64,000 bases of DNA from the IMG/VR virus record IMGVR_UViG_2925908680_000001; one strand, given 5' to 3'. The notes beneath the pieces were generated by a model. That model saw only the letters and a list, made by a program, of their open reading frames with translations. It did no database searches and was not told the origin of the DNA. Positions 3,041-46,580 of the stretch are shown here, in pieces. Within the stretch, counting starts at the first letter, position 1, and the number at the start of each line of letters is the position of its first letter. The DNA is from a virus. Lineage: Duplodnaviria > Heunggongvirae > Uroviricota > Caudoviricetes. Both the position numbers and the translations under genes were made by a program.

Positions 3041-3113
3041 ATCTTTTTACCAGTCTATACAGTTTTAACATTCTCATTATCATCCCCTCGGTCATTTCCT
3101 GCCCGGGGGATTA

Positions 3114-12603: not shown

Positions 12604-12824
12604 TATCGGTTAACCAGTTCCTTGTTGGTGGAGTCCAGGGTGTCAAACAGGGATGCAAATTCAGCATCCAGCGCCGCTTTTTTGTAGGCTTCGAAAGTAG
12701 ACTTGCTGACAATTACTGCTGGCTCACGGCCTCTGCGGGTGATTTCAACCTCTTCCCCGGCTTCAACATTGTTGAGCACTTCAGAAAGGTTGCCGCGCGC
12801 GGTACGGAAGTTAATGGATTGCAT
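12603..12824 (-). CDS. phd: Phd antitoxin
   Basis: 73 aa from [39 protein letters not shown]...; stop overlaps doc start. Confidence 0.9.
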
Positions 12825-12896
12825 AAACACCTCGTGTACTCGTTATGTGTACACAATTATAAACCTCACAGGCATAAAGCACCAGCCCTTTGCAGC

Positions 12897-13325: not shown

Positions 13326-13460
13326 TACATTAAAGGGACACCTTTGGTGCAAACGCGTTACGTACATCAACCACCGCTGATGATTTTGTGCTCTTTGCTA
13401 CTATTCATCACCAACGGATCAGCGTAACCTCGTTGCCAATCAGTTAATAAGGAATTAGCT

Positions 13461-14042: not shown

Positions 14043-14102
14043 ATCGAGGTAGAAAACACATTGTTTAAGGCCACTAATTGTGGCCTCAAAGGGGAGAGAT
14101 GC

Positions 14103-14654
14103 TTATTGGCTATGGCTAAAAATCAAATGAGACACTTCATGTGGTTGTAGCTCGTCAAGATCCGGGGCCACAAAACCTTTTCCGAAAAACTTCACAAGTA
14201 ATTCACCAGCCGAATCATTGTCACCTATTACACGAAAGTCATACGGCAGCATCGCAAGTTGACGGCGTAATCCTGCGGAGAAAGTCGAACCTAACAGCGC
14301 CCACGAATTGCCGCCCGCGTTGTGTACAGCTGCGCTCTTAAAAATAGACTCAGTTATCCATATTGGGCCATCTTTTAAAGGAAGATAGGTTCCCCAAAGT
14401 AACTGTCTGCCATGTGATCGCGTGAAATACCGGGCCATCTTCGGATTGCTATGCTGCTTAGGAGCACCTGGTCTATATGTCTGATACCCAGCCAACATCC
14501 CATCAAACCTGTATAGAGGGAATGTAACTACTCCTTCACTTTCATCGATCCACTGTCTATATGGGTGTATATCATGGCGGTAGTTACGAGTTAGCAAATG
14601 AGCTTCCAGCTTTCCAAATTTTGTCATATTCCGTTCTTCCTGCATACTGGGCAT
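14103..14654 (-). CDS. Hypothetical protein, possible Toprim-like fold
   Basis: Segments IWITESIFKSAAV and FRVIGDNDSAGEL resemble Toprim E and DxD motifs; weak. Confidence 0.4.
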   Translation of the reverse strand: MPSMQEERNMTKFGKLEAHLLTRNYRHDIHPYRQWIDESEGVVTFPLYRFDGMLAGYQTYRPGAPKQHSNPKMARYFTRSHGRQLLWGTYLPLKDGPIWITESIFKSAAVHNAGGNSWALLGSTFSAGLRRQLAMLPYDFRVIGDNDSAGELLVKFFGKGFVAPDLDELQPHEVSHLIFSHSQ

Positions 14655-14929
14655 GTGTTCTCTGTGAAATATGGGAAACTATTATCCAGCTCATCTACCC
14701 ACTGTTTATGGTCGAAGCAGAAAAATATCTCCCACGGCATTCCATATTCTTCCATCCATAGGCGGATCTGCATTTCTATTGGAATCGGCGGTATTGCAGA
14801 CACCATATCAACAGGATAACAGTTCAGACGACGTTCCAGTTTTTCTACTCTCTTCTGGAGATGAAATATCCGATCCAGATGCACACGCCGCTCCCGTGCC
14901 ATTTTAAAATAAAGCTCGCCGGTCATCAT
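14624..14929 (-). CDS. Small coiled-coil plus C-terminal Cys-motif protein (paralog A)
   Basis: C-terminus WEIFFCFDHKQWVDELDNSFPYFTENTCPVCRK; paralogous to the adjacent ORF. Confidence 0.5.
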   Translation of the reverse strand: MMTGELYFKMARERRVHLDRIFHLQKRVEKLERRLNCYPVDMVSAIPPIPIEMQIRLWMEEYGMPWEIFFCFDHKQWVDELDNSFPYFTENTCPVCRKNGI

Positions 14930-15213
14930 TAACTCCTACATTCAGGGCAAGAGTTCCCTTCCGCAAAATAGGGGAAACTGCTATCAAGCTCATCACACCA
15001 TCTGCGATGGTCGTAGCACCAAAACGCCTCCCACGGTGCACGGAAATACTTCATCCACCAGGACACTCGATCAGGTATATCTGCTGGTGGCAGCTCTTCT
15101 GGCAATAATTTGCCTGATAATTCCCTTTCCGCCCGCGCCAGCATTCCTTTTAGACTCGCATTCTCTTTTTCAAGAATATCTATGCGCGCCTGTAACTCAG
15201 CTTTCGTTGGCAT
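14929..15213 (-). CDS. Small coiled-coil plus C-terminal Cys-motif protein (paralog B)
   Basis: C-terminus WEAFWCYDHRRWCDELDSSFPYFAEGNSCPECRS; start chosen at MPTKAEL. Confidence 0.5.
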   Translation of the reverse strand: MPTKAELQARIDILEKENASLKGMLARAERELSGKLLPEELPPADIPDRVSWWMKYFRAPWEAFWCYDHRRWCDELDSSFPYFAEGNSCPECRS

Positions 15214-15877
15214 GGTCCGCCTCATGCTTTTCAGCCACCAGCGGCAATAAAGCCCTGGCCATCTTATGAACCAACAGAGCATCGATAATGCCAAGCGTAT
15301 GCCCCGGCTTAATGTTTAATGCCGCCTCAAGGTGACACCTTTCCAGGTCACTTTTCTCGGCTTGTTTATGATGATCTGGCGTAATAACGTCGCCCAAAAC
15401 ACGGCTAATTCTTTCTCGTAATTGCTGGGTGCCTGCACACTTGATCGCTGTATCGTGGAGACGGTTAACCAGTTCGCGATAAACATGCGGCTTAATGCGG
15501 ATACGTTCACCGGTGACGCCCTTTCCTGGCGCTGGCACCGAACTATCCGGAATATCCGGATAGTTGCCAGCCTCGTAAGCTACCCGCAGCCAGTGCATGA
15601 ATGTTTCAGTGGACACACAACCACAGTCCACATCGATTTTTCCGCGTTGCTGTTCCAGCCACTGCTCAAAATTCAATCTACACGTATTACTTTCATGTTG
15701 CTCTTTTTGTCTCAAGGCCAGCACCTGTTGGGCCAGTTCCAGAACGATACCGGGTGACGCTAACCTCTCAAATTCCAATAAATAGTTTGCGTCAGGATGA
15801 CAAGTAGCCTCGCCTGCAAAAAATACCAATTGCTGTAAGTATGCTGTCGTTAGAGTAGTCATTTCTTTTTGCGCCAT
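15197..15877 (-). CDS. Hypothetical early protein sharing a C-terminal module with ORF 24369-24989
   Basis: Shared segment YRELVNRLHDTAIKCAGTQQLRERIS vs YRELVDALRDVAIECHGTDQLRARLS. Confidence 0.5.
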   Translation of the reverse strand: MAQKEMTTLTTAYLQQLVFFAGEATCHPDANYLLEFERLASPGIVLELAQQVLALRQKEQHESNTCRLNFEQWLEQQRGKIDVDCGCVSTETFMHWLRVAYEAGNYPDIPDSSVPAPGKGVTGERIRIKPHVYRELVNRLHDTAIKCAGTQQLRERISRVLGDVITPDHHKQAEKSDLERCHLEAALNIKPGHTLGIIDALLVHKMARALLPLVAEKHEADHANES

Positions 15878-16233
15878 TTCTTTTCACATTCCTTAGTCCA
15901 TTTTTCAATGTTCATTTTGGCAATATCAGTCATTCCATCACCTAAGAAATACTTTTTCCGGTACGTCTTGCACTTAAACCACACTACAACAGCCACCAGC
16001 CAGAAAATAAAAGGCCATACGGCAATACCAACTCCAGCCGCGATAAAGCCCAATATCCATAAATGAAGCTCTCCAACTTCTGTTTCCGGCAATATTCTTA
16101 AAGAATTAAACAGCAGGCTGAACGAATGGTCGTATGCATTGGCAGTATAAGACATGCAATCCATATAATTAAAGTCATAGCCTGCGGCTGCCGCCCATAA
16201 TGGGCGGTCAAGAAAATGTTTTAGTGTCATCAT
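15859..16233 (-). CDS. Hypothetical membrane protein
   Basis: Hydrophobic stretch ILGFIAAGVGIAVWPFIFWLVAVVVWF; basic C-terminus. Confidence 0.45.
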   Translation of the reverse strand: MMTLKHFLDRPLWAAAAGYDFNYMDCMSYTANAYDHSFSLLFNSLRILPETEVGELHLWILGFIAAGVGIAVWPFIFWLVAVVVWFKCKTYRKKYFLGDGMTDIAKMNIEKWTKECEKKWRKKK

Positions 16234-16239
16234 ATTAAT

Positions 16240-16533
16240 TTAAGGTTCAGACCAGTTATCTTCAATAGCAATGCTTAATCTTTGTAGCCATTCTGCTAAT
16301 TTCAGCATTGCTTCTCTTTCGCTTAAACCACACGGAAAATCATCAAGCGATATTGTTGGCTTGAAGTTTCCCAAATTATCCATTTCAACGGTCAGATTTT
16401 GCTCCAGAACGGTATTTCTTACGCGGCTATTGTGCCGAAGCAAATATACTGAACGTGATTTATTGGTTTTGTGGTCGAACGTATATTCGGTAAGTATCAT
16501 CTGACTTCCGCCATGATTATTACCGCGCCACAT
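16240..16533 (-). CDS. Hypothetical protein
   Basis: ORF track. Confidence 0.4.
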   Translation of the reverse strand: MWRGNNHGGSQMILTEYTFDHKTNKSRSVYLLRHNSRVRNTVLEQNLTVEMDNLGNFKPTISLDDFPCGLSEREAMLKLAEWLQRLSIAIEDNWSEP

Positions 16534-16556
16534 AATTACTCCGTGTTAATTGAAAT

Positions 16557-16919
16557 TTAGCTATTAATCTTCACTTTTATCGCGAACACCTTTACCGGTT
16601 TATCACCGAAGTGTGGATGTGTGATTGTTTTTATTTCATATCCGTTATACGGGACGTCTATTCTGCGACTGGAATCGTCGCGCTTCGGATATCCCTTTGT
16701 GATAATCAGGCGGTCATATTCCCGGAACATGATTCGCTTATTCCAGTAGTCATTACACAAGCGATACTCTTCCGTTTTCTCTCCAGACTTCATCTGGTCG
16801 AAATATTCACCGTTAACTGCCAGTTGAAGGTTAGCCACGGTTAACCTCCTGCGGTGGTTCCGGTAGCGGCATCCAGTGAGTTGCCTGCTCAATACCATTA
16901 CCCGGTTTAATCGTTGCAT
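16557..16919 (-). CDS. Hypothetical protein (true start probably internal)
   Basis: ORF track; overlaps the upstream gene. Confidence 0.4.
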   Translation of the reverse strand: MQRLNRVMVLSRQLTGCRYRNHRRRLTVANLQLAVNGEYFDQMKSGEKTEEYRLCNDYWNKRIMFREYDRLIITKGYPKRDDSSRRIDVPYNGYEIKTITHPHFGDKPVKVFAIKVKINS

Positions 16920-18075
16920 CTCCGCGCCGAAAGGTGCTTCCGGTATAGCGTGCGGAGCATATTAGCGGTTCAACCAGAGAGCTATCGAAATTCACCGAAA
17001 TAAGCACGTTCTGGCCCTTTTCAGGCATTCGCTCACTACAGCTTATCCAACTATCCGAAATTACCGGAGAGTTTACGGCTAACGAGCGACCCAACTCAGC
17101 GCGGGCTTGCCAGGCTAACCAGGCAGCGTTTTTTGCGCCAACACCAGCTATGGGGAGGTTCTCGTCGTTATTCCAGGCATTGAAAGCTGCACGTTCATCA
17201 AGCCCAACAGGTACTACTGCCAACTGACTGGCATATTTGTTAATGGTAACGATAAGCTCTTGCTCAGCCTCATCCAGACAATCACCGATACCTCGCCTGT
17301 CACCGTCAAAATCATCGAAATCGGCACGAATCTTGGCAACCTTCAGGATTGCGGACAACACCTCACTAAGAATTACCGGATAGTTGGTTGACGTTTCCGC
17401 GATTTCCCGAAAATTATTGGTTGATGTTTCCGCGATTTCCCGAAAGTTTCCGGCATGAAGCATAGCCGCGCGGCAGGCGTTCCAGCCACCACGAAACCCA
17501 TTAGCCCATGCATCACTTTTCGGTAATTTCTCCATTAAATCATCAGCAATTTCCCCAGGTACTACCGGCACTGGCTTGGCGGTATAAAGCGGTGTTATAT
17601 CTGCCCGAAAATTACATGCTTTATGCAGCCGCACCCACCGTTCGACTTCTGCTTTGTCAAAATACATACCAGTGAACGTGTTATATTCACGGTCAATTTG
17701 CGTGAATGTTACCTTCCACGCCACCGGCTCTGCTTCCAGCGATGCCAGCGCAATTCGTGCCAGTTCTTCCGCTTCTTCTGCTGGCAGTACAACGTTGCTA
17801 CCCGGTCCGTATGTTTCGCGCCACTGCTTGATTGTCAGCAGTCGCTCTTTGGTTATAGTGGTCATGGGTTTTCCATCCGCCATCTCTTCATCGGTTTCCC
17901 ATAAAACTCGCGCCTGCCCCTCACAGACTTGAATGACTCCGCCACGACCGCAGGAGTTGCACTTAACGGCATCGTCATCCCACAAGGCGGTTTCATTTCC
18001 GCGAGCTGTTTTGACCGTGTGTGATTTATTCCCGCAGCGGCATTTGTTGAGCCAGTCAATAGTGAAAGTTTTCAT
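16831..18075 (-). CDS. Ea22-like early protein with DUF551-like C-terminus
   Basis: C-terminal ...ATHWMPLPEPP pattern; internal tandem duplication NFREIAETSTN x2. Confidence 0.5.
   Translation of the reverse strand: MKTFTIDWLNKCRCGNKSHTVKTARGNETALWDDDAVKCNSCGRGGVIQVCEGQARVLWETDEEMADGKPMTTITKERLLTIKQWRETYGPGSNVVLPAEEAEELARIALASLEAEPVAWKVTFTQIDREYNTFTGMYFDKAEVERWVRLHKACNFRADITPLYTAKPVPVVPGEIADDLMEKLPKSDAWANGFRGGWNACRAAMLHAGNFREIAETSTNNFREIAETSTNYPVILSEVLSAILKVAKIRADFDDFDGDRRGIGDCLDEAEQELIVTINKYASQLAVVPVGLDERAAFNAWNNDENLPIAGVGAKNAAWLAWQARAELGRSLAVNSPVISDSWISCSERMPEKGQNVLISVNFDSSLVEPLICSARYTGSTFRRGDATIKPGNGIEQATHWMPLPEPPQEVNRG
17385..17450. repeat. 33-bp in-frame tandem duplication inside ORF 16831-18075
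   Basis: ttggttgacgtttccgcgatttcccgaaaatta followed by ttggttgatgtttccgcgatttcccgaaagttt. Confidence 0.8.
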
Positions 18076-18341
18076 GATGCCTCTCCTTTACCCGCTGCTT
18101 TCGCCTGCTCTTTAGCAAGTCGCTCCGCTTCTCTGAAATCCCAATCCACTCGATGTGCTATATCAATTGCAGAGCGCACGGTTCGCTCAATTAGCGTATC
18201 CAGATTGTCAATTGTCATTGCCATATCTGGATTGCGAGATAAAATCTCCGCCCTCTGAATCTGCCAGTTGTTGCAGGTTTCAAGTAATGAGTTAGCCATA
18301 TCACTCTCCTTTGATGCGAATGCCAGCGGTGCGGGAATCAT
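18072..18341 (-). CDS. Hypothetical protein
   Basis: ORF track. Confidence 0.4.
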   Translation of the reverse strand: MIPAPLAFASKESDMANSLLETCNNWQIQRAEILSRNPDMAMTIDNLDTLIERTVRSAIDIAHRVDWDFREAERLAKEQAKAAGKGEAS

Positions 18342-19053
18342 TCCATCGCTTTACTTCTTCACGAATTACGTCAATGCATTCTTTCGAATCCATTAGGTAA
18401 TCTTCATCAAAAAGACGTTCCTGTTCGTTTTCTATCGCAACAATGATTGCTTCAACTAACTTTTGTGCCTGAGAATCACTTTCTAACTCTGCTATGCGCT
18501 TCTCTGCGGCTTCCAGCTTCTCGCGCATATCGTCAACGTACTCGACCAGAGATCCGCCAGCAGGAATTTCGCACTCCTCGACCAGTTGGAAGTAGATATC
18601 AGCTGCGGCCCGTGTGTTGCTATGCCTTGCGTCGCCCATCTCACCTTCACGAAGAGCATCGCGTTCGGCGGTAAGATTGGCTATTTTGCTGTCTTTGCCT
18701 TCCAGCTCAACGCGCAGCCTCCCAACCGTTAGCGCAATTTCCTCGTTCTCCTGGTCGCGGCGTTTGATGTATTGCTGTTTTCTTTCCAGCTCATCCAGCA
18801 GCGCCAAGACGGTAGCCGGATTGGCTGCGGCGATGAATTCAGCATTGGCCTGCTGTTCCATTTGGAAATCTTCATCGAAACCGCTTTCTGGATGCGCTCC
18901 TTCAATTCTGCAAATTGGAAGATATCCAACAACCTCACGATGAATTAGCGCATCATCACCATCAAATCGGCCATTTCCATATTCGAGCGACCACACACCA
19001 CACGTTGCTTTCTCTGCCTTTTCACGCAGTGCCTGATAGTCAATCTTGTTCAC
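18301..19053 (-). CDS. Ea22-like coiled-coil protein
   Basis: N-terminus MNKIDYQALREKAEKAT... shared with neighbouring paralogs. Confidence 0.5.
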   Translation of the reverse strand: MNKIDYQALREKAEKATCGVWSLEYGNGRFDGDDALIHREVVGYLPICRIEGAHPESGFDEDFQMEQQANAEFIAAANPATVLALLDELERKQQYIKRRDQENEEIALTVGRLRVELEGKDSKIANLTAERDALREGEMGDARHSNTRAAADIYFQLVEECEIPAGGSLVEYVDDMREKLEAAEKRIAELESDSQAQKLVEAIIVAIENEQERLFDEDYLMDSKECIDVIREEVKRWNDSRTAGIRIKGE

Positions 19054-19643
19054 TGGTTGCCTCCTTTGCGAAGCTGGGCGGCGAACTCGTTAAGTGATAT
19101 GTAGCAATCTCCAAATGTTAACGAACCGCTCGACCGCATATGCTCCATAGCCATCTCCACGCCCTGCGCCCGTACTTCAGCCAGGAAAGCGTCGGTAGCT
19201 GGCGTTTCGCTGTGGTGCAGGGCATCATTAATAATCATCGCAGCAACTCCGGCCTGCCCTGCATCCGTGACCGACACATGCTCAAGAGTTACGGCCATTG
19301 CGTGTTTCAGCCCAGCGTTCTCTGCCACCAGCGCAGCGAGATTAGTCTCAAGCTCTGAAATTCGGCACGTGGCATCAATATTTGTGTCCTCCAAGCACTT
19401 AATTTCACCAAGCAGCTCCAGTGCAACCTTTGGGTTGAACGCGGCAACATGACGAGCGTTGTTCTCTGCATTTTTCTGTCCATCAAAGCCGGTCCATTTG
19501 ATAACGTCTTCACATCGTTCATCACCGGGCGTGCGCACCGCATAAGTACCAGTATCCGTCGAAATAAATGCGACCCATTCGTCTGGTGTTGCCTTTTCTG
19601 CCGCCTCACGCAGTACCTGATAGTCAATTGTCATTCTCGCCAT
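19050..19643 (-). CDS. Ea22-like protein
   Basis: N-terminus MARMTIDYQVLREAAEKAT; C-terminal [16 protein letters not shown] module shared with ORF 23095-23706. Confidence 0.5.
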   Translation of the reverse strand: MARMTIDYQVLREAAEKATPDEWVAFISTDTGTYAVRTPGDERCEDVIKWTGFDGQKNAENNARHVAAFNPKVALELLGEIKCLEDTNIDATCRISELETNLAALVAENAGLKHAMAVTLEHVSVTDAGQAGVAAMIINDALHHSETPATDAFLAEVRAQGVEMAMEHMRSSGSLTFGDCYISLNEFAAQLRKGGNQ

Positions 19644-20275
19644 CCTTCACAGTTGTAATCACTACAGCCTTCAAAATCATATGGGCTGTACTGCCAGGTG
19701 ATTTTTCCGCAATGCGGACAATTCCAGCGCACCTTCCCGCTTCGTGACTTCTTTCTTCTGTTTTGCTTTTTCAACCAGTCAGGCATGATCAAACCTGCGC
19801 CCTGAACCATTGTTCTGCGGTTAAAATTATTGATATTGAACGTCCGCCGCTTTGCTGCATCGGCAATGGAAAATGGCAACCAAACTATTCCTGGTTCGTT
19901 TTTGTTGGCGACGCTAAAGATGGTTGCTTTACTGAAGTCATCGGTTGGCAATCCACCGTGTTGAAGCCAGTAAACATCGTTGCCATTCCAGCAACCTTTT
20001 TTGTAGGCCACATACGCAGTGCAATCTGACTCAATCAGGCTTTCTGTAGGGATGTACTGGCAATCAACGTGCCACACTGCCATTGCATCCACGCTATCAG
20101 CGCAAACAGGCTGATCGATATCTCGACCACAATTCCAGGCTTTTTGGGCTTCTTCCAGCGTGTAAACATGAGCGCGATCGATATCAGAGCTGTAACCATT
20201 GCCGTTATGGCAATGGAATGAGGCGTTATTACCCACAGTTTCACGCAAGCACATCATGTAAAAGCGGTTATTCAC
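19631..20275 (-). CDS. Cysteine-rich hypothetical protein
   Basis: ORF track; CxxC pairs including C-terminal NCPHCGK...GCSDYNCEGW. Confidence 0.45.
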   Translation of the reverse strand: MNNRFYMMCLRETVGNNASFHCHNGNGYSSDIDRAHVYTLEEAQKAWNCGRDIDQPVCADSVDAMAVWHVDCQYIPTESLIESDCTAYVAYKKGCWNGNDVYWLQHGGLPTDDFSKATIFSVANKNEPGIVWLPFSIADAAKRRTFNINNFNRRTMVQGAGLIMPDWLKKQNRRKKSRSGKVRWNCPHCGKITWQYSPYDFEGCSDYNCEGWRE

Positions 20276-26342: not shown

Positions 26343-26446
26343 AATACTGACTGTTGCGCCCTGGCATTATCGTGGGGTATATTTCTACGGCACCTTAGAA
26401 AAACGGGTGCCGGGATTGGAACCCCGGATAATGCAAAAGGCGACAC

Positions 26447-26470
26447 AGACGCCGAAAGCGTCTTTTTTTG
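26447..26470 (+). terminator. Rho-independent terminator
   Basis: gacgc-cgaaa-gcgtc followed by ttttttt. Confidence 0.65.
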
Positions 26471-26499: not shown

Positions 26500-26625
26500 G
26501 TTTAGCTCAGAGATCAATGGTAGTGCTGGCTGGGCTGCCGAAAGGCAGGCCGGTTCCCTTTTGCGCCGGTAGTTCCAACCCAGTCAGTGCTACCGCCATT
26601 GAGATTGGAACCTCACGCGGTAGCT
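26500..26625 (+). ncRNA. Putative c4-like antisense RNA / target region of immunity module 1
   Basis: Structured leader upstream of icd; ggttccaa segments complementary to ttggaacc near the icd RBS; by analogy to P1 immI. Confidence 0.3.
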
Positions 26626-26654: not shown

Positions 26655-26870
26655 ATGGCTACTATCCCTACCCCAACTCATTCTGAATTTATCTGGCGTT
26701 TCTATTCCTGCCAAAAACACCTGTATATCTGCGTCATGGCTGCTACCGAAGCAGAAGCTCGTTCATACCTTCCTGAAGAACCCTGCATTTTTGCCGCACG
26801 CTTCACTCTTGATGCGATGGAGATCCTAAATTACTGGAATCTGCCAATGAACTGCGTGGAGGTGCACTGA
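26655..26870 (+). CDS. icd: Icd-like host cell division inhibitor
   Basis: 71 aa; immediately precedes and is coupled to the antirepressor gene (TGATG overlap), as in P1 immI. Confidence 0.65.
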   Translation: MATIPTPTHSEFIWRFYSCQKHLYICVMAATEAEARSYLPEEPCIFAARFTLDAMEILNYWNLPMNCVEVH

Positions 26871-27811
26871 TGAATCTGTCCATCTCTCAAAAAGCGACAA
26901 TGACCAGTATTGAGATCGCGGAACTGGTAGGTAAGCGTCATGATAATGTGAAGCGTACCATTGAAGTATTAACTAAAGGTGGTGTCATTCAATTTCCTCA
27001 AATTGAGGAAATTGAAAATAAACAATCAGTTGGCCCTCGTCGATTTTCCAAGGCTTACATATTTGAAGGCGAACAAGGAAAACGAGACAGCATCATTGTC
27101 GTCGCGCAGCTCTCTCCGGAATTCACCGCCCGGCTGGTGGACCGCTGGCGCGAACTGGAGAATGCCCGGGTACAGTTAAAATCAAAAGCCGAAATTCTGG
27201 CTGAAATGGCGCAAATGCATCTTGAGCATGAACGCCGGATCAACGCCGTAAATGCCCAGGTAGCCGAGGTATCAGCACAAGTATCGATGGTCGCTGAAAC
27301 ACTCGAGCAAATCAAGAAAGGCAATATTCCGGAAGGCTACATTGGCTACCGCCAGCTGGCGGCGAAATGTGGCCTGACTGAAGCCAAATGTCGCAACCTG
27401 GTTAACGCTTTCCGGATTCCCACCGATACGCATGAGTTTTTAACTCCAGATGGTTTGCTTGCGCGACGCTCCATTGTGGCCCTGGTCCCCTTCCGGAAAG
27501 CCTTTAAGCAGGTGATGTCGGAGGCAGAACCACGCAATAAACGCTGGTATCATCCAAAGATGGGGATGTTTCAGGCAATCCACCATCCTGTGCCTGAAAG
27601 CCCAAAGGATAATCTGTCACTACATACCGTCAGAGAGAAGATCAGGACTGGATACGCAACAGTGTGTCGTCGTTCTTCCTGGCCTGAAGGTATATGGGTG
27701 TGGCCCGAAGGTGGATCACGAAAGCACTGGCGCACCATCCGTGACGGGAAAATCCATGCTATTGATTTAGCTCCAGAGGATGTTATTGCTATGGACTGGA
27801 TTGTTAGTTAA
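26870..27811 (+). CDS. ant: Antirepressor (Ant-like) with Rha-type N-terminal domain
   Basis: N-terminus MTSIEIAELVGKRHDNVKRTIE; 313 aa; paralog at 45623-46549. Confidence 0.7.
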   Translation: MNLSISQKATMTSIEIAELVGKRHDNVKRTIEVLTKGGVIQFPQIEEIENKQSVGPRRFSKAYIFEGEQGKRDSIIVVAQLSPEFTARLVDRWRELENARVQLKSKAEILAEMAQMHLEHERRINAVNAQVAEVSAQVSMVAETLEQIKKGNIPEGYIGYRQLAAKCGLTEAKCRNLVNAFRIPTDTHEFLTPDGLLARRSIVALVPFRKAFKQVMSEAEPRNKRWYHPKMGMFQAIHHPVPESPKDNLSLHTVREKIRTGYATVCRRSSWPEGIWVWPEGGSRKHWRTIRDGKIHAIDLAPEDVIAMDWIVS

Positions 27812-27870: not shown

Positions 27871-28182
27871 ATGAAAAAAATAGATTTCACTTATTCTGCC
27901 GCCACACTTGAGCGGCGCTTCACCCTCATTAGAGAGTTGGAACTGTCAAAAGTCTGGTATCAAATCCTACTGGATGAAGAGTTTTCACTGATGGTTATAG
28001 CAGAAAAATTGGCTATGCCTAATGATCGGCACAAGGTCATAGCCAGCCTCGATCTGGTGACAAACAGATACTGGGAAACAGAGGAACTACATGAGGCGGG
28101 AGTAATTCGTGACCTGATGGAGAATTCCGTTCCCCGCCGCTATCGTGCAGGGAACGGCATCTCCGTGGTTAAAGGTGTTTAA
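27871..28182 (+). CDS. Hypothetical protein
   Basis: ORF track. Confidence 0.45.
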   Translation: MKKIDFTYSAATLERRFTLIRELELSKVWYQILLDEEFSLMVIAEKLAMPNDRHKVIASLDLVTNRYWETEELHEAGVIRDLMENSVPRRYRAGNGISVVKGV

Positions 28183-28571
28183 AGCTCACCTGCGCGCTGT
28201 TTTTCAAGCACAGATTTAACATTTGGCGCTTTCCCTTTAAAAGAATGGAAAGTGCCACATTTTTCTGTTTTAACCTCGCGCAGAGCTTCGCCATCGGCGT
28301 TCTGCCATTGATGGGATAATGTCATATCACCGCGAGAAGGAACATCCAGCGAGTACAGCGTGTAAGTTCCCCCCATCTCCGCATACTCCTGGAACACATA
28401 GCTCATTACGTCAGATTCAGTTTTTCGGTGTGCGTTATCAACCTTATTCCCATTCAGAAATATGGCATCTGGATAGATTTTTATATCAAACCTACCGCAC
28501 TTAACTTGTAAATTTCCGGCGCTCGCGATCAAAGGGAAAGACGCCAGTAAAGCAATAGCCAATCTTTTCAA
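28179..28571 (-). CDS. Secreted hypothetical protein (signal peptide)
   Basis: N-terminal MKRLAIALLASFPLIASA signal-like sequence. Confidence 0.55.
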   Translation of the reverse strand: MKRLAIALLASFPLIASAGNLQVKCGRFDIKIYPDAIFLNGNKVDNAHRKTESDVMSYVFQEYAEMGGTYTLYSLDVPSRGDMTLSHQWQNADGEALREVKTEKCGTFHSFKGKAPNVKSVLEKQRAGEL

Positions 28572-28591
28572 TTCTGCCTCCGCTGCGTAAC

Positions 28592-29215
28592 TTATTGCCC
28601 GTATTTTTTACACCATTGCTCTGCCATTTGTTTGGCTAAAGGCCCGGCTACTGCACTGTATTCTGCTGTTTTACTTTGCACACATGAAGCAGATGGTTTT
28701 TTATTTCGCTGCTCGGTTAGTTTGCGCTCATAAGCCATCATGCTATCGAACCCGGCAATATCACTTTGGCGAAGCATTCCCTTTTTAACCAAAAATTGCT
28801 GCCCCTCGGGCACCAGCGCAAGCATAAAAAGTGGTTGTAATAACTCACCTAATCCTTGCTGGCGATACACTTCGAATTGCTGCCATCCCTGACTTAATCT
28901 GGAAAGAGTATCTTTGGTTGAATAACCTGTTTTTGTTATAGCTTTGTCCGTCAGATATGCTGTATATGCAAAAACGCAAAAGTCAGTTTTACCAATAAAC
29001 TGAGTTCCAACAGGCCGTAATGGAATGCCCTCTCTCTTGCAAAAGTCCATAATTGCCGCTTGTGAATGATCCCCACCAGCGTTATTCATAACCTGCTGCC
29101 CTGCCCTGTATTGTGCAGGTAACGCAGTTGCATTGGCTGTATTAACAGATACGCATCCCAACATAGCCGCGAGCGCGGTCCCTAAAACCCTTAACTTCAC
29201 TACACCGTCCTTCAT
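28592..29215 (-). CDS. Secreted/periplasmic hypothetical protein
   Basis: N-terminal signal-like LRVLGTALAAMLGCVSVNTANA; several cysteines. Confidence 0.55.
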   Translation of the reverse strand: MKDGVVKLRVLGTALAAMLGCVSVNTANATALPAQYRAGQQVMNNAGGDHSQAAIMDFCKREGIPLRPVGTQFIGKTDFCVFAYTAYLTDKAITKTGYSTKDTLSRLSQGWQQFEVYRQQGLGELLQPLFMLALVPEGQQFLVKKGMLRQSDIAGFDSMMAYERKLTEQRNKKPSASCVQSKTAEYSAVAGPLAKQMAEQWCKKYGQ

Positions 29216-29326
29216 GTAAACAAAATGAAGTTTTATGTTACAAAAACAATCAACTACATCAACATGATTTAGGCCAAATTTCGGTCAAAAAATAAAATCC
29301 ACAAAAAGTGGTTGACACTATTTTGG

Positions 29327-29349
29327 AAATCACAAACTGCACATAATCC
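29327..29349 (+). promoter_or_regulatory. Late-promoter-like element aaatcacaaact + -10-like cataat
   Basis: Member of the recurring AAATCACAAAST motif upstream of structural genes. Confidence 0.4.
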
Positions 29350-29430
29350 ATCGCGCTAACGGCTCCCGTTGAAGGTTCTTTTGACGATTAACTTTCAGCC
29401 GAAGCGCGGTAGGGAGTCATAACGCCAAAG

Positions 29431-29456
29431 CAGGCCGCCATGTGCGGCCTTTTTTT
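29431..29456 (+). terminator. Intrinsic terminator inside the 5' leader of ORF 29484
   Basis: aggccgc-catgt-gcggcct followed by ttttttt, about 25 nt before the RBS ggaggaagg. Confidence 0.6.
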
Positions 29457-29483
29457 GTATCCGTCATCCGTGGAGGAAGGACA

Positions 29484-30137
29484 ATGGAAAAGATCGCAAT
29501 ATTCAGCCTGACCACCAGCAAGCCTCAAATGCTCACTGCAATACTGAAAGACGGTGCTCTCATTATTAACGAAGTAAAACCCCTTCCCGCGTCAGCATTG
29601 GAGCAAAAGCAAAAAATTCCTCCAGCCATAGCAGCCCTGCGGAAAAGCAAATTTAAGGTACTGGTAGACGAAATTACGCCAACGATCTCCGCTGGCACCG
29701 GAGCAAGCCAGGTGACTCTCAAGACCCGTCATGCCGATGGCAGAGCAGCAATCATCGTCGGGATGGAAAGATACAGAGAGTTAAAACTCCAGAAGCTATT
29801 ATCCCTGCCGCAAAATAACAAAGGTGCTTTCGAAATCCCCGACTCTATCGTTGATACCGAATACAACGGTAACGGAGAAGAAGTCTACAGGGTGAACTGG
29901 CAGGATATCAGGCCGGAGCATATTCTGATGATCCTGTGTTGCTACGCGACCGTATACCACAACGTTGCCAGTGCGGATTACGTAGAGCAGATGACCGGTA
30001 CAGTCGAGAAAGAGCAAAAAACAGGCATACTCGCTTCGTTCCTTTCCATTATTGGGCATGAAAAAGTTAAAGCAGGCACCTCCCAGCCAAAGTCACTGGC
30101 TGGGAAAGAAGTTGATGAAGATACCGTGATACTTTGA
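29484..30137 (+). CDS. Hypothetical protein
   Basis: ORF track frame; start moved to MEKIAIF with a strong RBS. Confidence 0.5.
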   Translation: MEKIAIFSLTTSKPQMLTAILKDGALIINEVKPLPASALEQKQKIPPAIAALRKSKFKVLVDEITPTISAGTGASQVTLKTRHADGRAAIIVGMERYRELKLQKLLSLPQNNKGAFEIPDSIVDTEYNGNGEEVYRVNWQDIRPEHILMILCCYATVYHNVASADYVEQMTGTVEKEQKTGILASFLSIIGHEKVKAGTSQPKSLAGKEVDEDTVIL

Positions 30138-30445
30138 TCACATTAGTAGCTTTGTTAACTCCCTCAACACCAGGTAGAAGAGTAACAAAAATATTGACGC
30201 GAGTATTTGAGTGGTCAATGAGGCGTTCATAAACAGATCAATTAGCTTTAATATTTCGAAGATAACATCCATGTCATTCACTCCGTTTAATTTTTAATCT
30301 AATGCCAGCAAATGAAGCTGGCCCCCGCATAAAGATTAATGAAAGTCACTTGTCACCAGTGAGGGGATTTATGGTGGCCTGTCTGTTTCTCGCATTTCAC
30401 ACCCTGCATACAGTTTCCCCCAGGTTATGACTGAGAGGCTTTGTT

Positions 30446-30775
30446 ATGGGCTATAGCAGACTCGACGATAGGTACATTGAAGACGATATTTTTCGTGCGC
30501 TGTTTCACCAGGAAATGATTAAGCGGGTATCGGAGTATCACTCTGATAATTTCCAGTACACGATAAAGATTGATGAAGTATATCGTTCAGACCTTGCAGC
30601 CTACCGGGCGTATGGCAATGCAGATTTGCGCTGGGTATTCCGGGTGCTGGTGGGCCATGAGTCAGAAATGGAAGAAATGCCCGCCGGGACCACGTTAACT
30701 CTTCCTGATGTGGCATGGCTGAGGAATAAGATCCGTGATTACGCGAGCGCGGAACCGGAGATAGAAAATGCCTGA
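30446..30775 (+). CDS. Hypothetical protein
   Basis: ORF track; coupled to the downstream gene. Confidence 0.45.
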   Translation: MGYSRLDDRYIEDDIFRALFHQEMIKRVSEYHSDNFQYTIKIDEVYRSDLAAYRAYGNADLRWVFRVLVGHESEMEEMPAGTTLTLPDVAWLRNKIRDYASAEPEIENA

Positions 30776-31964
30776 TTTCCTGAAAAACCAGGACGGGCGC
30801 TATATCACTGACGGCCTGTCCTCTAAGGACTTCACGCGTTTATTCGACCTTATCAGGAAAGAACAAACCCGTAAGCGCCGGCAAGCTCACCGGACGCTGA
30901 CGCCAGGTAGACTGAGGAACAAATCCGCCGAAGATATTCTCAAGTTAGGGAAGAAAAAAGGCGGCACGTTCTTCACGCGAGACGACCTGAAAGGTTTCGA
31001 AAAGCTACGGAGTAAAACGCGCGAAAAATATGACAGCAAGACGGCTGGCATCACATACGCCCAGCTGGTGGCATCCAGCCAGGCAATCGATATTAAGCGT
31101 GCAAATAACGCCGTGGATGACGGATCCGGTATCAAAAGAGCTACCCCCGTATCTCTTCGCCACAATGTGATTAATATCCGCGTAGAAGCATCGGATATAT
31201 CCGTCCACCAGCACCATATCGTCCGGATACGCTTTGAAGAATGGGATCAGATGGTTGATGACATCGCAGAAGACGATAAATCAGCTCTCAAAATCACTAA
31301 ATCACTGTGCGCCGGGCGAGTGTCTTTCGATTGTGACTGTGGTCGTCATCAATACTGGTATCGTTACATCGCCACTGCGGGTAACTTTGCCCTGGCACCG
31401 CCAAAAGAATACGCCTATCCAAAAGTTCGCAACCCGAAGCTGCAAGGCGTCGCCTGTAAACACGTGATCCACTCAATGACGCGGTTACAGTCCGCCAGTT
31501 GGCAAATGAGTATTGCTCGTGCGCTACAAAAGGCTGCAACGCAAATTGCATTTGGTGACGATCGCCGCCGTACAACTAAACACTTCTCAAAAGAAGACGA
31601 GAAGGAGTTTAATCGCAATCGTAGCAGTAAAACGAACGTTGAAGCCGCCAAACGCGAATGGAGGCTCTATCAGAAGCGCCAGGCAGCTTTAAGTACAAAA
31701 CTGGCAAAGGACAACGGCAAGATCGACAAGCTACGTGACCAATTGACCAGGGCCAGAAAGTTGTCAGACGCACAGAAAAAACGGGCGGCTGCAAAAGAAG
31801 CGGCCTTGCAACGTGAGAAACAGAAAAATAAGGAACTTCAGCAACGCCTTGCCGATCAGTTCGCACTGAAGAAGCAGGCGTTCATTGATGCACTGGTCAT
31901 GGCAGGAACGTCACCTGAGCAAGCTGAAAAAATGTTTATGGAGTACGTGAAGAAAGGTTCTTGA
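30768..31964 (+). CDS. SWIM zinc-finger-like protein with basic coiled-coil C-terminus
   Basis: CDCGRHQYWY...CKHVIH fits a CxCxnCxH SWIM pattern; C-terminal Lys/Arg-rich coiled coil. Confidence 0.5.
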   Translation: MPDFLKNQDGRYITDGLSSKDFTRLFDLIRKEQTRKRRQAHRTLTPGRLRNKSAEDILKLGKKKGGTFFTRDDLKGFEKLRSKTREKYDSKTAGITYAQLVASSQAIDIKRANNAVDDGSGIKRATPVSLRHNVINIRVEASDISVHQHHIVRIRFEEWDQMVDDIAEDDKSALKITKSLCAGRVSFDCDCGRHQYWYRYIATAGNFALAPPKEYAYPKVRNPKLQGVACKHVIHSMTRLQSASWQMSIARALQKAATQIAFGDDRRRTTKHFSKEDEKEFNRNRSSKTNVEAAKREWRLYQKRQAALSTKLAKDNGKIDKLRDQLTRARKLSDAQKKRAAAKEAALQREKQKNKELQQRLADQFALKKQAFIDALVMAGTSPEQAEKMFMEYVKKGS

Positions 31965-31998
31965 TTGACAACAAAGGCGGTCATACAGACCGCCAAAC

Positions 31999-32358
31999 TC
32001 ATACACCAACCAGGCTTTCAAGAGGAATGCCAAACTGGGAATGTAAACGACGAATCATAGGTAACGTTAAATTTCGTGTCCCATTTAGCACTTCGTAAAC
32101 ACGATTTGACTTACCAATCGCCGGTTCCAGATCCTTCACGGTCAGCCCTTGCTGTTCCATACGGAATTTAATGGCCTCAATAGGTGATGGTGGCTCAATT
32201 GGGTAATGTTTTTTCTCGTACTCCTCAATGAGAAGACACATAACCTCAAAGAAATCGCCTTCCGGTGTGTTCATTTCCGGTTCATTATCGAACATCGGTT
32301 CGACCGCACGCAGTGCGGCCTCATAATCTTGTTCTGTACGGATAGGTTTAATGTTCAT
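31999..32358 (-). CDS. higA: HigA antitoxin (XRE-family HTH)
   Basis: 119 aa HTH protein directly downstream of higB. Confidence 0.8.
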   Translation of the reverse strand: MNIKPIRTEQDYEAALRAVEPMFDNEPEMNTPEGDFFEVMCLLIEEYEKKHYPIEPPSPIEAIKFRMEQQGLTVKDLEPAIGKSNRVYEVLNGTRNLTLPMIRRLHSQFGIPLESLVGV

Positions 32359-32361
32359 GAT

Positions 32362-32664
32362 TTACTCCAGTTCTATTGTATCCGCTTCAATGGCATCGTA
32401 TTCCTTATGTGTTCCAATAAACTTAACGAACATCCATCCTCGCTGATAAGCAATTGCGACAATTAACCTGTAATCATTTCCCTTAATATTGAACACCACG
32501 CGCCTGTTTTTAAGGATGCTGGCTGTCCGGTACTGTTCTTTGATCTCAGCCGGATTTTTCCAGTCAGCCTTTGTTGCTTCATCAACCCATGCCTTTAATG
32601 GCTGTTCTGCATCGGGATTCTTCGCCCAGAAATCCCTTAGTGTTTTTACCGAAATTATTTTCAT
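32362..32664 (-). CDS. higB: HigB toxin (RelE/ParE superfamily mRNA interferase)
   Basis: 100 aa from MKIISVKTLRDFW...; THKEYD motif as in E. coli HigB; start placed at the internal ATG behind a -10-like tatact. Confidence 0.8.
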   Translation of the reverse strand: MKIISVKTLRDFWAKNPDAEQPLKAWVDEATKADWKNPAEIKEQYRTASILKNRRVVFNIKGNDYRLIVAIAYQRGWMFVKFIGTHKEYDAIEADTIELE

Positions 32665-32694
32665 CACAGATTCCTTCTCTCTGAAAGTATAGTA

Positions 32695-32740
32695 GTCCCA
32701 ATATGGGACAATGTAAAGCACTTTAGTCCCATGCTGGGAT
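32695..32740. promoter_or_regulatory. Palindromic operators in the higBA promoter
   Basis: gtcccaatatgggac (perfect palindrome) and gtcccatgctgggat, upstream of higB. Confidence 0.6.
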
Positions 32741-32748
32741 ATGAATTG

Positions 32749-32808: not shown

Positions 32809-33601
32809 TATGGGCCGTTTTGACGAATGGTTTTCTGACGATGCAAACCTGGCAAGTAAGGAGTCAGAACATGACAGCACGCAGAGAGAAACGCCAGCGC
32901 CGATTGAAGCGAATGCAGGAGGCGCGCCGGAACATGGCAATACCAGTTCGGATTCATTCAGCATTCTGGAAGAGCAACCCGCCGCCAAAGCTGATAGCCA
33001 TGATAATTTTGCTGATAGCAACGGTGGCCTTACTCCAGATGCTGGCGAATCAGATATAGCCATACTTCCACCTTCCCTGGCTGGCAGAGAACCAACTCCA
33101 CAGCTAAAAGCACGCTATAACGGGCATAAAGCCTTTAACGACCAAATCCGCACAGACTGGATGCTGATTATTGAATCCAGCCCAGACGCGTTTCAGGCTC
33201 TCTTATATCGACCAGATGTTGGCACATATGGGGTAGTCAGCGACGAAACAGGAGAAGAGTCATTCACTGAACTGGATAACAACCAACGCGAACTGACTTA
33301 CCAGGAACCTGAAATCGTTTATGTGCTGGATAACCCGGACGGGCGTGACTCTTTCCATGCGATTGACGCAGACGGTGAGCAGGATGGCTTAACCGATGAT
33401 GTTCTGATTCTGCGTATTGCAGCAAATAACGTCCCCGTCGGCTCAATTCTTGAATGGAATGAAGAGATGGTAAACGGCGTAGCCCGCCGCTGGTGGTACG
33501 TGCACCGTATTTTTAGCTACGGCACACAGCATGTTGGTTCGCTTTACTACTGCATACCAGCCAGGAATTTTGATACGACTCAAAACGGAGTGATCGAATG
33601 A
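32809..33601 (+). CDS. Acidic hypothetical protein (structural-module candidate)
   Basis: ORF track frame with start at MGRFDEW. Confidence 0.4.
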
Positions 33602-45081: not shown

Positions 45082-45289
45082 AATTTGAATTTTCGAACAT
45101 AAATAATAAAATAAATCATCAAAAATTTGATGTTGATCTTCCATGTTTTCAGGCTTATATTCACGCCGTCGTAGCAAATTCTGCGACCGGGTTTAGCAGC
45201 CTGAATGATTGTGCGGACAACCGCAGATTTCCGATATTGCGGTATTTTTGTGTCCGTAAACCGCGTTACGCCCGAATTATGGTGGGGCG

Positions 45290-45400
45290 TGATGGGGAGG
45301 CTTCGGCCTGCTGGTTTCACAATCGCCAGTCTGCTAACCCCGTCACGTCCTGCCACCCGTTTAGCAGCGGGTAGCAGGTTGTTAAACCTGATTGTGAGGC
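45290..45400 (+). ncRNA. Putative c4-like antisense RNA / target region of immunity module 2
   Basis: tcacaatc (45317-45324) complementary to gattgtga (45390-45397) at the icd RBS; ctgctaacc (45331-45339) complementary to gtttagcag (45359-45367). Confidence 0.35.
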
Positions 45401-45407
45401 CGTAACT

Positions 45408-45623
45408 ATGGTTAATGCCAATCCTTGCCCTCGCCCGGAATTTATCTGGCGCTTTTATTCCTGCACAAAACACACCTACATCAGCGTAATGGCAGCTACT
45501 GAGGCTGAAGCGCGTTCATTTCTTCCTACAGATCCGTGCATTTTTGCCGCTCGCTTTAAACCCGATGCTCTGGACGTTTTGACCTACTGGAACCGCCCAA
45601 TGAACTGCGTGGAGGTGCACTGA
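45408..45623 (+). CDS. icd: Icd-like host cell division inhibitor (second copy)
   Basis: 71 aa, about 75 percent identical by eye to ORF 26655-26870; coupled to ant. Confidence 0.65.
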   Translation: MVNANPCPRPEFIWRFYSCTKHTYISVMAATEAEARSFLPTDPCIFAARFKPDALDVLTYWNRPMNCVEVH

Positions 45624-46549
45624 TGAATCTGTCCATCTCTCAAAAAGTGACAATGACAAGTATTGAGATCGCGGAGCTGGTGGGAAGTCGTCATGACAAG
45701 GTGAAACAATCTATTGAACGACTGGCGGGACGAGGTGTAATAGCTTTTCCCCCAATGGGGGAGAAGCCCACCGCAGGCCGCCCGGCGAGCTATTACGTCT
45801 TTGAAGGCGAGCAAGGCAAGCGCGACAGCATTGTTGTCGTCGCACAGCTTTCTCCCGAATTTACCGCCCGACTGGTGGACCGCTGGCGCGAACTGGAGAG
45901 TGCCAAAGTACAGTTAAAATCAAAGGCCGAAATCCTGGCCGAAATGGCGCAAATGCATCTTGAGCATGAACGCCGGATCAACGCCGTAAATGCCCAGGTA
46001 GCCGAGGTATCAGCACAAGTGTCCAGGGTCACTGAAACACTTGAGCAGATCAAGAAAGGCAATATTCCGGAAGGCTACATTGGCTACCGCCAGCTGGCGG
46101 CGAAATGTGGCCTGACTGAAGCCAAATGTCGCAACCTGGTTAACGCTTTCCGGATTCCCACCGATACGCATGAGTTTTTAACTCCAGATGGTTTGCTTGC
46201 GCGACGCTCCATTGTGGCCCTGGCCCCCTTCCGGAAAGCCTTTAAGCAGGTGATGTCGGAGGCAGAACCACGCAATAAACGCTGGTATCATCCAAAGATG
46301 GGGATGTTTCAGGCAATCCACCATCCTGTGCCTGAAAGCCCAAAGGATAATCTGTCACTACATACCGTCAGAGAGAAGATCAGGACTGGATACGCAACAG
46401 TGTGTCGTCGTTCTTCCTGGCCTGAAGGTATATGGGTGTGGCCCGAAGGTGGATCACGAAAGCACTGGCGCACTATCCGAGATGGGAAAATCCATGCTAT
46501 TGATTTAGCTCCAGAGGATATTGTTGCTACGGACTGGATTGTTAGTTAA
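45623..46549 (+). CDS. ant: Antirepressor (Ant-like), second copy
   Basis: 308 aa; C-terminal two-thirds near-identical to ORF 26870-27811, N-terminal Rha-type region diverged. Confidence 0.7.
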   Translation: MNLSISQKVTMTSIEIAELVGSRHDKVKQSIERLAGRGVIAFPPMGEKPTAGRPASYYVFEGEQGKRDSIVVVAQLSPEFTARLVDRWRELESAKVQLKSKAEILAEMAQMHLEHERRINAVNAQVAEVSAQVSRVTETLEQIKKGNIPEGYIGYRQLAAKCGLTEAKCRNLVNAFRIPTDTHEFLTPDGLLARRSIVALAPFRKAFKQVMSEAEPRNKRWYHPKMGMFQAIHHPVPESPKDNLSLHTVREKIRTGYATVCRRSSWPEGIWVWPEGGSRKHWRTIRDGKIHAIDLAPEDIVATDWIVS

Positions 46550-46557
46550 TTACTGTT

Positions 46558-46580
46558 GCCCCGGCCAGGCCGGGGCTTTC
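46558..46580. terminator. GC-rich hairpin between convergent ant and ORF 46585-46989
   Basis: gccccggcc / ggccggggc followed by tttc. Confidence 0.5.

Follow-up and report, generated by a model that had tools for sequence, protein, structure and literature searches.

Conserved P1-family genes and separately exchanged cargo cassettes between immI and the baseplate genes of a D6-like phage-plasmid

The closest described counterparts of the locus analysed here are found in phage P1 and in Escherichia phage D6. In P1, genes 26-25-7-24-6-5 form one contiguous late operon, in which genes 26 and 25 overlap or abut, 3 bp separate 25 from 7 and no cargo lies between these two, while pmgF and mat map elsewhere. 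P1 also carries the superimmunity locus sim (simA, simB, simC). D6 (NC_050154) and the plasmids pYU39_89 and pSL26_91 share a different arrangement, which reads ant, pmgF, slot, mat, orf77, 26, 25, slot, 7-24-6-5. The same order, with 26 and 25 arranged as in P1 and with both pmgF and mat on the immI side, is present in a 64,000-nucleotide stretch of DNA from a virus of the Caudoviricetes (IMG/VR record IMGVR_UViG_2925908680_000001), hereafter the window, whose interval from 27871 to 32741 is the subject of this study. A first-pass annotation, made from the letters alone, had described this interval as a single accessory island between immI and the baseplate genes, carrying two secreted proteins, a SWIM-finger protein and a higBA toxin–antitoxin (TA) pair and possibly serving superinfection exclusion or abortive infection (Abi).

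Our analysis showed that the interval is probably a mosaic, in which conserved P1-family genes alternate with independent exchange sites, and not one accessory island; this degree of confidence applies to the mosaic and to the readings of both cargo slots given below, taken together. Whole-window comparison revealed collinear homology to D6 across most of the 64 kb, and on this homology the window is identified as a D6-like phage-plasmid (plasmid-prophage) of the P1 family. A 7-kb query around the interval is 96.6% identical to D6 and matched 299 plasmids, most of which are records of ~90 kb, classed as non-mobilizable, from Escherichia, Salmonella and Shigella. The D6-like backbone of D6, pYU39_89 and pSL26_91 has 96–99% nucleotide identity to the window. 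Forward genes were identified by tblastn against D6 and P1, by the D6 annotation and by PHROGs, and cassette borders were placed with blastn against D6. Slot 1 holds two leftward genes for predicted exported proteins, here named sec207 and sec130, and slot 2 holds higBA. The backbone genes and the slots between them are arranged as follows.

27871..28182, plus strand: pmgF-like gene, 103 amino acids (aa); 39% identical to P1 PmgF and 83% to D6 orf81; phrog_7349 (E = 3e-54); also identified from the D6 annotation
28142..29157, no strand: filling of cargo slot 1 (pmgF/mat), without D6 counterpart; D6 homology stops at 28141 and restarts at 29158
29158..29483, no strand: conserved control region from which sec207 and mat diverge; it takes in the first ~19 sec207 codons, which D6 retains before its SimB-like gene
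29484..30137, plus strand: mat-like gene, 217 aa; 33% identical to P1 Mat over 208 aa (E = 5e-36) and 99.5% to D6 orf78; phrog_1837
30138..30281, minus strand: small hydrophobic open reading frame (ORF), 44–47 aa; 96% identical to D6 orf77; phrog_38362
30446..30775, plus strand: gene 26 homologue, 109 aa; 41% identical to P1 gp26; phrog_1269, "baseplate wedge subunit"
30768..31964, plus strand: gene 25 homologue, 398 aa; 57% identical to P1 gp25 over 337 aa (E = 7e-141); phrog_1722
31965..32748, no strand: filling of cargo slot 2 (25/7), the higBA cassette; D6 homology to gene 7 restarts at 32749
32810..33601, plus strand: gene 7 homologue, 263 aa; 98% identical to D6 orf69 and 46% to P1 gp7; GAGGA ribosome-binding site before the ATG at 32810

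The forward ORFs of the interval, previously counted as three unknown genes, thus number four and are homologues of P1 pmgF, mat, 26 and 25. The first is a P1-family gene of "putative morphogenetic function", whose final ~13 codons fall within the variable cassette of slot 1, and the second is a core homologue of the P1 maturation control gene. The gene 26 product is a core baseplate wedge subunit related to T4 gp53, and its P1 counterpart is included in the P1 baseplate model (bioRxiv 10.1101/2025.07.21.665459). The gene 7 homologue opens the 7-24-6-5 tail/baseplate block and forms the right border of slot 2. Among D6-like plasmids in PLSDB, genes 26-25 were found in 119 of the 119 counted, a denominator defined as plasmids with at least 80% coverage of the 26-25 query. 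In the closest plasmid relative, NZ_CP066033, an IS2 element (4852-6080) interrupts mat, and phage maturation may be impaired with this copy.

The secreted proteins and the TA pair had been called accessory, and this part of the earlier description holds: the exported-protein cassette is present in 52 of the 119 D6-like plasmids (~44%) and the full higBA cassette in 21 (~18%), and both are missing from P1. In 5,426 complete Escherichia coli genomes, at a threshold of at least 80% of the query, the exported-protein cassette occurs 38 times, on ~90-kb plasmids, and higBA 19 times, again on ~90-kb plasmids and never on a chromosome. What did not hold is the idea that the whole of 27871–32741 was acquired as a unit for superinfection exclusion or Abi, which we now regard as very improbable. 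The accessory status of both cassettes would fit such an island, as would the G+C content, which falls to 0.41–0.44 across both of them, and the presence of a sim-related gene in the D6 interval. Against this stand the ~2.8 kb of conserved mat, 26 and 25 that separate the cassettes, and the independent variation of the latter: D6 lacks both, and NZ_CP058619 combines the exported pair with a TA system other than higBA. The comparison with P1 and D6 that was meant to define the island borders instead delimits two separate slots, each with borders of its own, and this synteny already refutes the single island.

Alternative slot contents were found in D6 and in the plasmids CP066033, CP148392, CP058619 and CP026808. 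Slot 1 of D6 contains orf80, which encodes a small membrane protein, and the SimB-like orf79, the body of which is 52% identical to P1 SimB. The annotated N-terminus of orf79 corresponds to the first ~19 codons of sec207 and is 65% identical to the sec207 N-terminus; the two cassettes are therefore alternatives behind the same upstream DNA. This upstream region, 29158-29483, is common to nearly all D6-like plasmids whatever their cargo (query positions 976-1258) and includes a terminator-like hairpin with a T-run on the plus strand (29432-29450). In NZ_CP148392, slot 1 contains, beside the exported pair, three forward genes (1631-3623) for proteins of 101 aa, 357 aa and 205 aa, the last annotated as dCTP deaminase (dcd). 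Slot 2 of D6 contains an orphan higA-like gene, orf72, which is 98% identical to higA of the window, together with an extra orf73 and a RelE/ParE-HigA pair (orf70/71) that takes the place of HigB. A third slot, between mat and 26, is occupied in NZ_CP058619 (3610-4181) by a RelE/ParE-HigA pair, so that this plasmid has two extra TA pairs within the same 9 kb. The site in Shigella dysenteriae NZ_CP026808 (7075-7344) was considered as an empty 25/7 junction and rejected, since it holds the 5' end of higB, the promoter and one palindrome and is a decayed higBA. PADLOC found no defence-system match for D6 orf73, the 828-bp ORF of CP148392, the dcd cluster or D6 orf79/80; its only matches among the cargo of relatives were that of the HigA-like D6 orf72 to PD-Lambda-2_B and weak helix–turn–helix (HTH) matches for orf71.

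The arrangement in the window is itself already known, as dozens of public plasmids carry it at 97–100% identity, and the NCBI pipeline has annotated higBA. Both higAB and the substitution of simB in D6-like prophages are likewise in the literature: simB was reported to be replaced by hypothetical proteins in the D6-like pSL26_91 (= CP032492) (PMC6799933). In the window, the cassette that occupies slot 1 consists of a leftward operon of two genes.

28592..29215, minus strand: sec207, first gene of the operon, 207 aa from the ATG at 29215; full-length PHROG match
28179..28571, minus strand: sec130, second gene of the operon, 130 aa; GGAGG 5 nt before a TTG start; full-length match to phrog_13864

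For sec207, a start at the GTG at 29200, which lies behind AAGGA and would give a protein of 202 aa, is more likely. Both ORFs had been recognised as reverse-strand genes for signal-peptide proteins, and this description is borne out, with the tripartite n-h-c organisation and the A-x-A motif of Sec signal peptides in each. That of sec130 is of the Sec type and reads MKRLAIALLASFPLIASA/G, that is, MKR followed by 12 hydrophobic residues and an ASA/G cleavage site; that of sec207, MKLRVLGTALAAMLGCVSVNTANA/T, consists of MKLR, a hydrophobic core and A-x-A, and its cleavage motif is conserved across alleles. The mature parts contain two invariant cysteines in sec130 and four in sec207, and the mature domain of sec207 is all-alpha, with no known fold recognised. 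Both products are thus predicted to be exported through Sec and to be capable of forming disulfides. The possibility that sec207 is a lipoprotein was rejected, as the cysteine of its "MLGC" sequence becomes glycine in several alleles, which keep A-x-A. A spanin role for the pair was likewise rejected, given that the lipobox cysteine is not conserved and that about half of the relatives lack the pair.

By the Nei–Gojobori method, the ratio of nonsynonymous to synonymous divergence (dN/dS) is 0.07–0.11 for sec130 and ~0.1 for sec207 where it can be measured, dS being saturated, and this purifying selection indicates that both are real genes. In the same plasmid pairs, dN amounts to 0.24–0.34 for sec207, to 0.02–0.065 for sec130 and to 0.014–0.045 for gp25; at the protein level, sec207 alleles share 57–67% identity on backbones whose gp25 is 93–100% identical. 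The sec207 alleles are mosaic, with different segments tracking different relatives. They are old, recombining and under purifying selection, and an arms race is not demonstrable from them. Both families are small, comprising 10 (sec207) and 11 (sec130) clusters among 5.8 billion proteins, and no more than 22 relatives were retrieved when 1.84 billion cluster representatives were searched with a profile; the ten more distant of these have no Pfam domain above the curated cut-off. Neither protein has a match in sequence searches of Pfam, NCBIfam, PADLOC or the Protein Data Bank (PDB), and a tblastn search of 50,697 phage records found nothing for sec207.

The P1 sim genes offer the nearest comparison, as they are likewise small leftward genes for signal-peptide proteins of a P1-family prophage, and sec207 sits in exactly the site of the D6 SimB-like orf79, whose upstream DNA and initial ~19 codons it shares. 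They differ from the present pair in sequence: no similarity between sec207 or sec130 and SimA, SimB or SimC was detected by blastp or tblastn, and the 64-kb window contains no sim homologue at all. Our preferred guess, which we put forward tentatively, is that the exported pair are Sim-like exclusion proteins; it draws on their predicted export and on the locus that they share with a SimB-like gene, whose presence in the D6 slot makes an exclusion role reasonable. Like P1 Sim, the pair would then be active in the lysogen's periplasm and directed at related phages that come in. Unlikely as it stands is the more specific proposal that sec207 and sec130 make up a hitherto unrecognised pair that acts in the periplasm in superinfection exclusion or against phages, allelic with the D6 SimB-like cassette, and that the divergence of their alleles reflects specificity differences among P1/D6-type phages.

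The same observations may be read in another way, to which we also give a low probability, namely that the two proteins are periplasmic lysogenic-conversion or host-directed factors (acting in envelope modification, stress tolerance or colonisation) or accessories to the lysis or entry of the phage itself. This would agree with the lack of similarity to any Sim protein or defence family, with the novel all-alpha fold, with the strong purifying selection within alleles and with the confinement of the pair to plasmid-prophages of Escherichia, Shigella and Salmonella. It accounts poorly for a SimB-like gene behind the same upstream region in the D6 slot. As for lysis or entry, a spanin is unlikely given the unconserved lipobox cysteine and the absence of an N-terminally membrane-anchored partner, and about half of the D6-like phages do without the pair, which is therefore dispensable for these steps.

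Slot 2 is occupied by a higB-higA pair with palindromic operators, as the first-pass annotation had proposed. Its features are the following.

32362..32664, minus strand: higB toxin gene, 100 aa; Pfam PF09907 HigB_toxin (E = 3e-34; 117 bits against a cut-off of 27)
31999..32358, minus strand: higA antitoxin gene, 119 aa; N-terminal toxin-binding part and C-terminal Xre-type HTH (Pfam HTH_3, residues 63–115)
31976..31994, minus strand: intrinsic terminator of higBA, GGCGGTC-loop-GACCGCC with a T-rich tail; no T-run on the plus strand
32689..32739, minus strand: higBA promoter-operator; -10 TACTAT at 32694..32689 and -35 TTTACA at 32717..32712

The toxin gene comes first, and a gap of 3 nt separates its stop codon from the start of higA, with a GGAG ribosome-binding site within the end of higB. 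HigB belongs to the RelE-fold family of ribosome-dependent mRNA interferases; its residues 1–92 align to E. coli K-12 HigB (5IFG/5YCL; E = 1e-7) with an identical THKEYD motif, and residues 6–112 of HigA align to K-12 HigA in the same structures (E = 2e-8). A repeat finder located two palindromes 31 bp apart that share the core TCCCA-N3-TGGGA, and a promoter scan the -35 and -10 elements given above. Operator 1, GTCCCAATATGGGAC (GTCCCA-ATA-TGGGAC; 32695-32709), fills the 17-bp spacer of the sigma-70-like TTTACA/TACTAT promoter, and operator 2, TCCCATGCTGGGA (TCCCA-TGC-TGGGA; 32727-32739), lies upstream of the -35 element. Judged from its sequence, the cassette is a self-contained operon for a type II TA system of the E. 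coli K-12 HigBA type. With K-12 HigB-HigA (YgjN-YgjM; 5IFG, 5YCL, 6KML) it shares the toxin-first operon, PF09907, the THKEYD motif and the C-terminal Xre HTH; it differs in its low identity to that pair (E ~1e-7), in the length of HigA (119 aa here, 138 aa in K-12), in its location on a plasmid-prophage and in its own operator sequence, TCCCA-N3-TGGGA.

By analogy with this family, HigB would act as a ribosome-dependent mRNA endonuclease, HigA would bind and neutralise it, and the HTH of HigA would repress the operon at the two palindromes, one of which fills the promoter spacer. Homologues of phd-doc are present at ~12233-12861, where the sequence is 95.7% identical to D6 86470-87098, and the element thus has at least two TA modules. 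The most likely main role of higBA is that of a second addiction module, which would act in post-segregational killing beside phd-doc; addiction is favoured by the low copy number of the plasmid and by the phd-doc module that it already has. In D6-like prophages, phd-doc and higA-higB have been described as two post-segregational killing systems (PMC6799933). The TA pair had earlier been linked to Abi, and while the pair itself is confirmed, plasmid addiction is at least as likely on a low-copy plasmid-prophage and is how the literature reads D6-like higAB (PMC6799933); Abi is possible as an additional role.

A role in defence is suggested by comparison with PD-lambda-2, a system that protects against lambda-vir by Abi (Vassallo et al. 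2022; PMC9519451). There, as in the window, a HigB-like first gene precedes a second gene that starts with a HigA-like HTH, and in PADLOC, the full length of HigB matches PD-Lambda-2_A (E = 1e-41) and HigA covers positions 1–119 of the 402 of PD-Lambda-2_B (E = 7e-43). PD-lambda-2 is defined by the fusion of HigA to a peptidase in component B, which is its toxic part, and by a third gene, C, which is required for defence (PMC9519451). The window pair lacks both: HigA has no peptidase domain of the ImmA/IrrE type, and no third gene resembling a P4 antitoxin was found, as higA is followed directly by the terminator and gene 25. Membership in PD-lambda-2 was therefore rejected. The extra ORFs found after higA in relatives matched no PADLOC model.

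On this evidence we consider it rather unlikely that higBA is primarily an anti-phage Abi system, either a reduced relative of PD-lambda-2 or an Abi system of HigB type, that an infection would set off by stopping antitoxin synthesis and that would so guard lysogens and the resident prophage against competitors. Such a role would be in keeping with the PADLOC scores and the lambda-vir phenotype just described, with the existing supply of addiction by phd-doc and with the occurrence of HigB homologues (42% identical) in the immunity regions of Stx/H-19B lambdoid prophages. It is hard to reconcile with the missing peptidase domain and component C, given that C is needed and that B and not the HigB-like A is toxic in PD-lambda-2; with the decay or replacement of the cassette in many relatives, as seen from the CP026808 remnant and the orphan higA of D6; and with DefenseFinder surveys, in which complete defence systems were almost absent from D6-like elements (bioRxiv 10.1101/2025.09.12.675607). 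The lambdoid homologues, 42% identical over their full length and located in the immunity regions of Stx-converting phages, are mostly unannotated (e.g. H-19B AF034975 4142-4438).

As a leftward, terminated operon between 25 and 7, higBA interrupts a block that P1 keeps as a single late operon. On the plus strand the hairpin that follows gene 25 lacks a T-run, and late transcription may therefore read antisense through higBA into gene 7. Conservation of the 60 bp that precede gene 7 does not depend on the cargo (blastn against D6), and a promoter scan recognised no promoter in them. A strict scan of the window for P1-type late promoters found a single site, CAAGTGACTTTCATTAATCT, at 30333-30352 on the minus strand. 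With relaxed criteria there were 10 sites, compared with 3–18 in shuffled sequences, and thus no signal, and the P1 C1 operator ATTGCTCTAATAAATTT had 0 sites at up to three mismatches. With both scans at chance or zero, the regulation of the split late operon is not readable from P1 motifs, and the window differs in this from P1, whose late-promoter and C1-operator motifs are not detectable here beyond chance. The one strict site lies ~50 bp upstream of the orf77-like ORF, on whose strand it reads CAAGTGACTT-TCAT-TAATCT. This ORF runs opposite to mat and directly adjoins its stop codon, and it could encode a late-expressed membrane peptide.

The fourth conserved gene of the interval, gene 25, is the one that had been singled out as an unknown ORF with a SWIM-like CxCxnCxH zinc finger and a basic coiled-coil tail. 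The motif and the tail are present, while neither the label of unknown ORF nor a match to the SWIM model is upheld. Gene 25 is a core late morphogenetic gene and the orthologue of P1 gp25, as follows from its homology to P1 gp25, its presence in all 119 plasmids, the extent of its family, which spans at least 300 protein clusters of P1-like elements in many Enterobacterales, and the retention of the 26-25 pair in a distant phage (see below). It overlaps gene 26, as in P1 and D6, and P1 gp25 is annotated with the function "tail stability". The codons of the motif are located as follows.

31332..31463, plus strand: CxC...CxH codons of gene 25, C189-D-C191-x38-C230-K-H232 of gp25

Residues C189, C191, C230 and H232 are invariant across 50 gp25 homologues of 44–87% identity, and their codons are the most conserved DNA of gene 25 and the only part that is still ~84% identical in plasmids of Klebsiella and Raoultella. 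The 38-residue spacer, which contains a helix and a long loop, is longer than usual for SWIM domains. An AlphaFold 2 model of the protein (predicted local distance difference test score, 84.8) shows long helices in the C-terminal third, and a basic coiled coil takes up the last ~120 aa, with a net charge of +15 over residues 278–398. The C-x-C-x(n)-C-x-H signature is that of SWIM zinc fingers (PF04434; e.g. ZSWIM8), and a match to the family model is lacking: Pfam SWIM gave no match at E <= 10 for either whole gp25 or the motif region, a profile of the motif region retrieved only noise and no SWIM protein from the PDB, and Foldseek found nothing in the PDB at E <= 0.001. The motif is thus SWIM-like and probably binds zinc, with family membership unproven.

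In Acinetobacter phage ABMM1, a myophage, a gene-26-like/gene-25-like pair (4299-5709) is kept between the terminase/portal-side genes and the capsid gene, and in Xanthomonas phage Rb1 a gp25 homologue, annotated as "transcriptional regulator MvaT" (4800-5879), lies just upstream of the capsid gene. Such a placement in distant myophages sits oddly with a purely tail role. It is conceivable, at clearly less than even probability, that the gene 25 product is not a structural tail protein at all, and that it is a zinc-dependent assembly factor or a regulator in morphogenesis that binds nucleic acid or protein, the "tail stability" phenotype being indirect. The invariant motif next to a basic coiled coil and the position of the 26-25 pair in distant phages speak for this, as do the data on P1 particles: mass spectrometry of P1 virions detected gp25 weakly, with 2 peptides, and HHpred assigned it no structural role (PMC9024508), and gp25 is absent from the proteins modelled in the P1 tail-baseplate cryo-electron microscopy structure (bioRxiv 10.1101/2025.07.21.665459). 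Against it, gp25 was detected in P1 virions, if weakly; gene 25 always lies in the late structural operon beside the baseplate wedge gene, and no fold or family match backs any specific activity.

Several of the results above weigh against our overall reading of the interval. The divergent sec207 alleles give no positive-selection signal of an arms race, with dS saturated and dN/dS ~0.1, and the exported pair has no similarity to the Sim proteins, no PADLOC, Pfam or NCBIfam family and no known fold, which leaves the position of the genes to carry the exclusion idea. Both HigB and the HigA domain have high scores with the profiles of components of PD-lambda-2, an anti-phage system, so that defence in place of addiction is possible. 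Membership of gp25 among SWIM proteins is unproven by the Pfam, Foldseek and PDB profile searches, and there is neither a promoter for gene 7 nor a set of P1-type late promoters beyond chance.

The sequence features listed in the first-pass annotation were largely confirmed, including immI, which adjoins the interval upstream, with a C4 RNA followed by icd and ant.

26513-26600: C4 antisense RNA (Rfam, 76.7 bits)
26655-26870: icd-like ORF, to the left of the interval
26870-27811: Rha/Ant anti-repressor gene, to the left of the interval

Directly upstream of the immI C4 RNA, at 26390-26468, lies a match to the Hfq-binding small RNA isrK (Rfam, 62.5 bits; gathering score 50). A second immI-like unit is found at 45155-46579, with a c4-a1b1 target (45155-45207), a C4 antisense RNA (45275-45360) and icd/ant-like DNA, and it parallels the D6 annotation, in which icd-ant occurs twice. 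At 97-1583 there is a cluster of five tRNA genes (Arg-TCT, Tyr-GTA, Thr-TGT, Ser-TGA and Met-CAT); in its counterpart of this region, D6 has three annotated. The early region 13337-20270 has little or no D6 homology and encodes Ead/Ea22-like and DUF551 proteins along with several orphan ORFs, and it is another variable segment of the backbone.

Taken together, these comparisons correct the earlier picture of the locus and illustrate how a reading made without tools can mistake conserved, poorly annotated morphogenetic genes for accessory cargo. For workers on P1, the invariant Cys2-Cys-His motif of gp25 provides a direct mutational handle on this protein. For the D6-like elements, the analysis yields a map of cargo slots on the backbone (pmgF/mat, mat/26 and 25/7), which are sites that exchange TA pairs and exported proteins, and the two exported orphan proteins, confined as they are to plasmid-prophages, are reasonable candidates for a role in phage exclusion.

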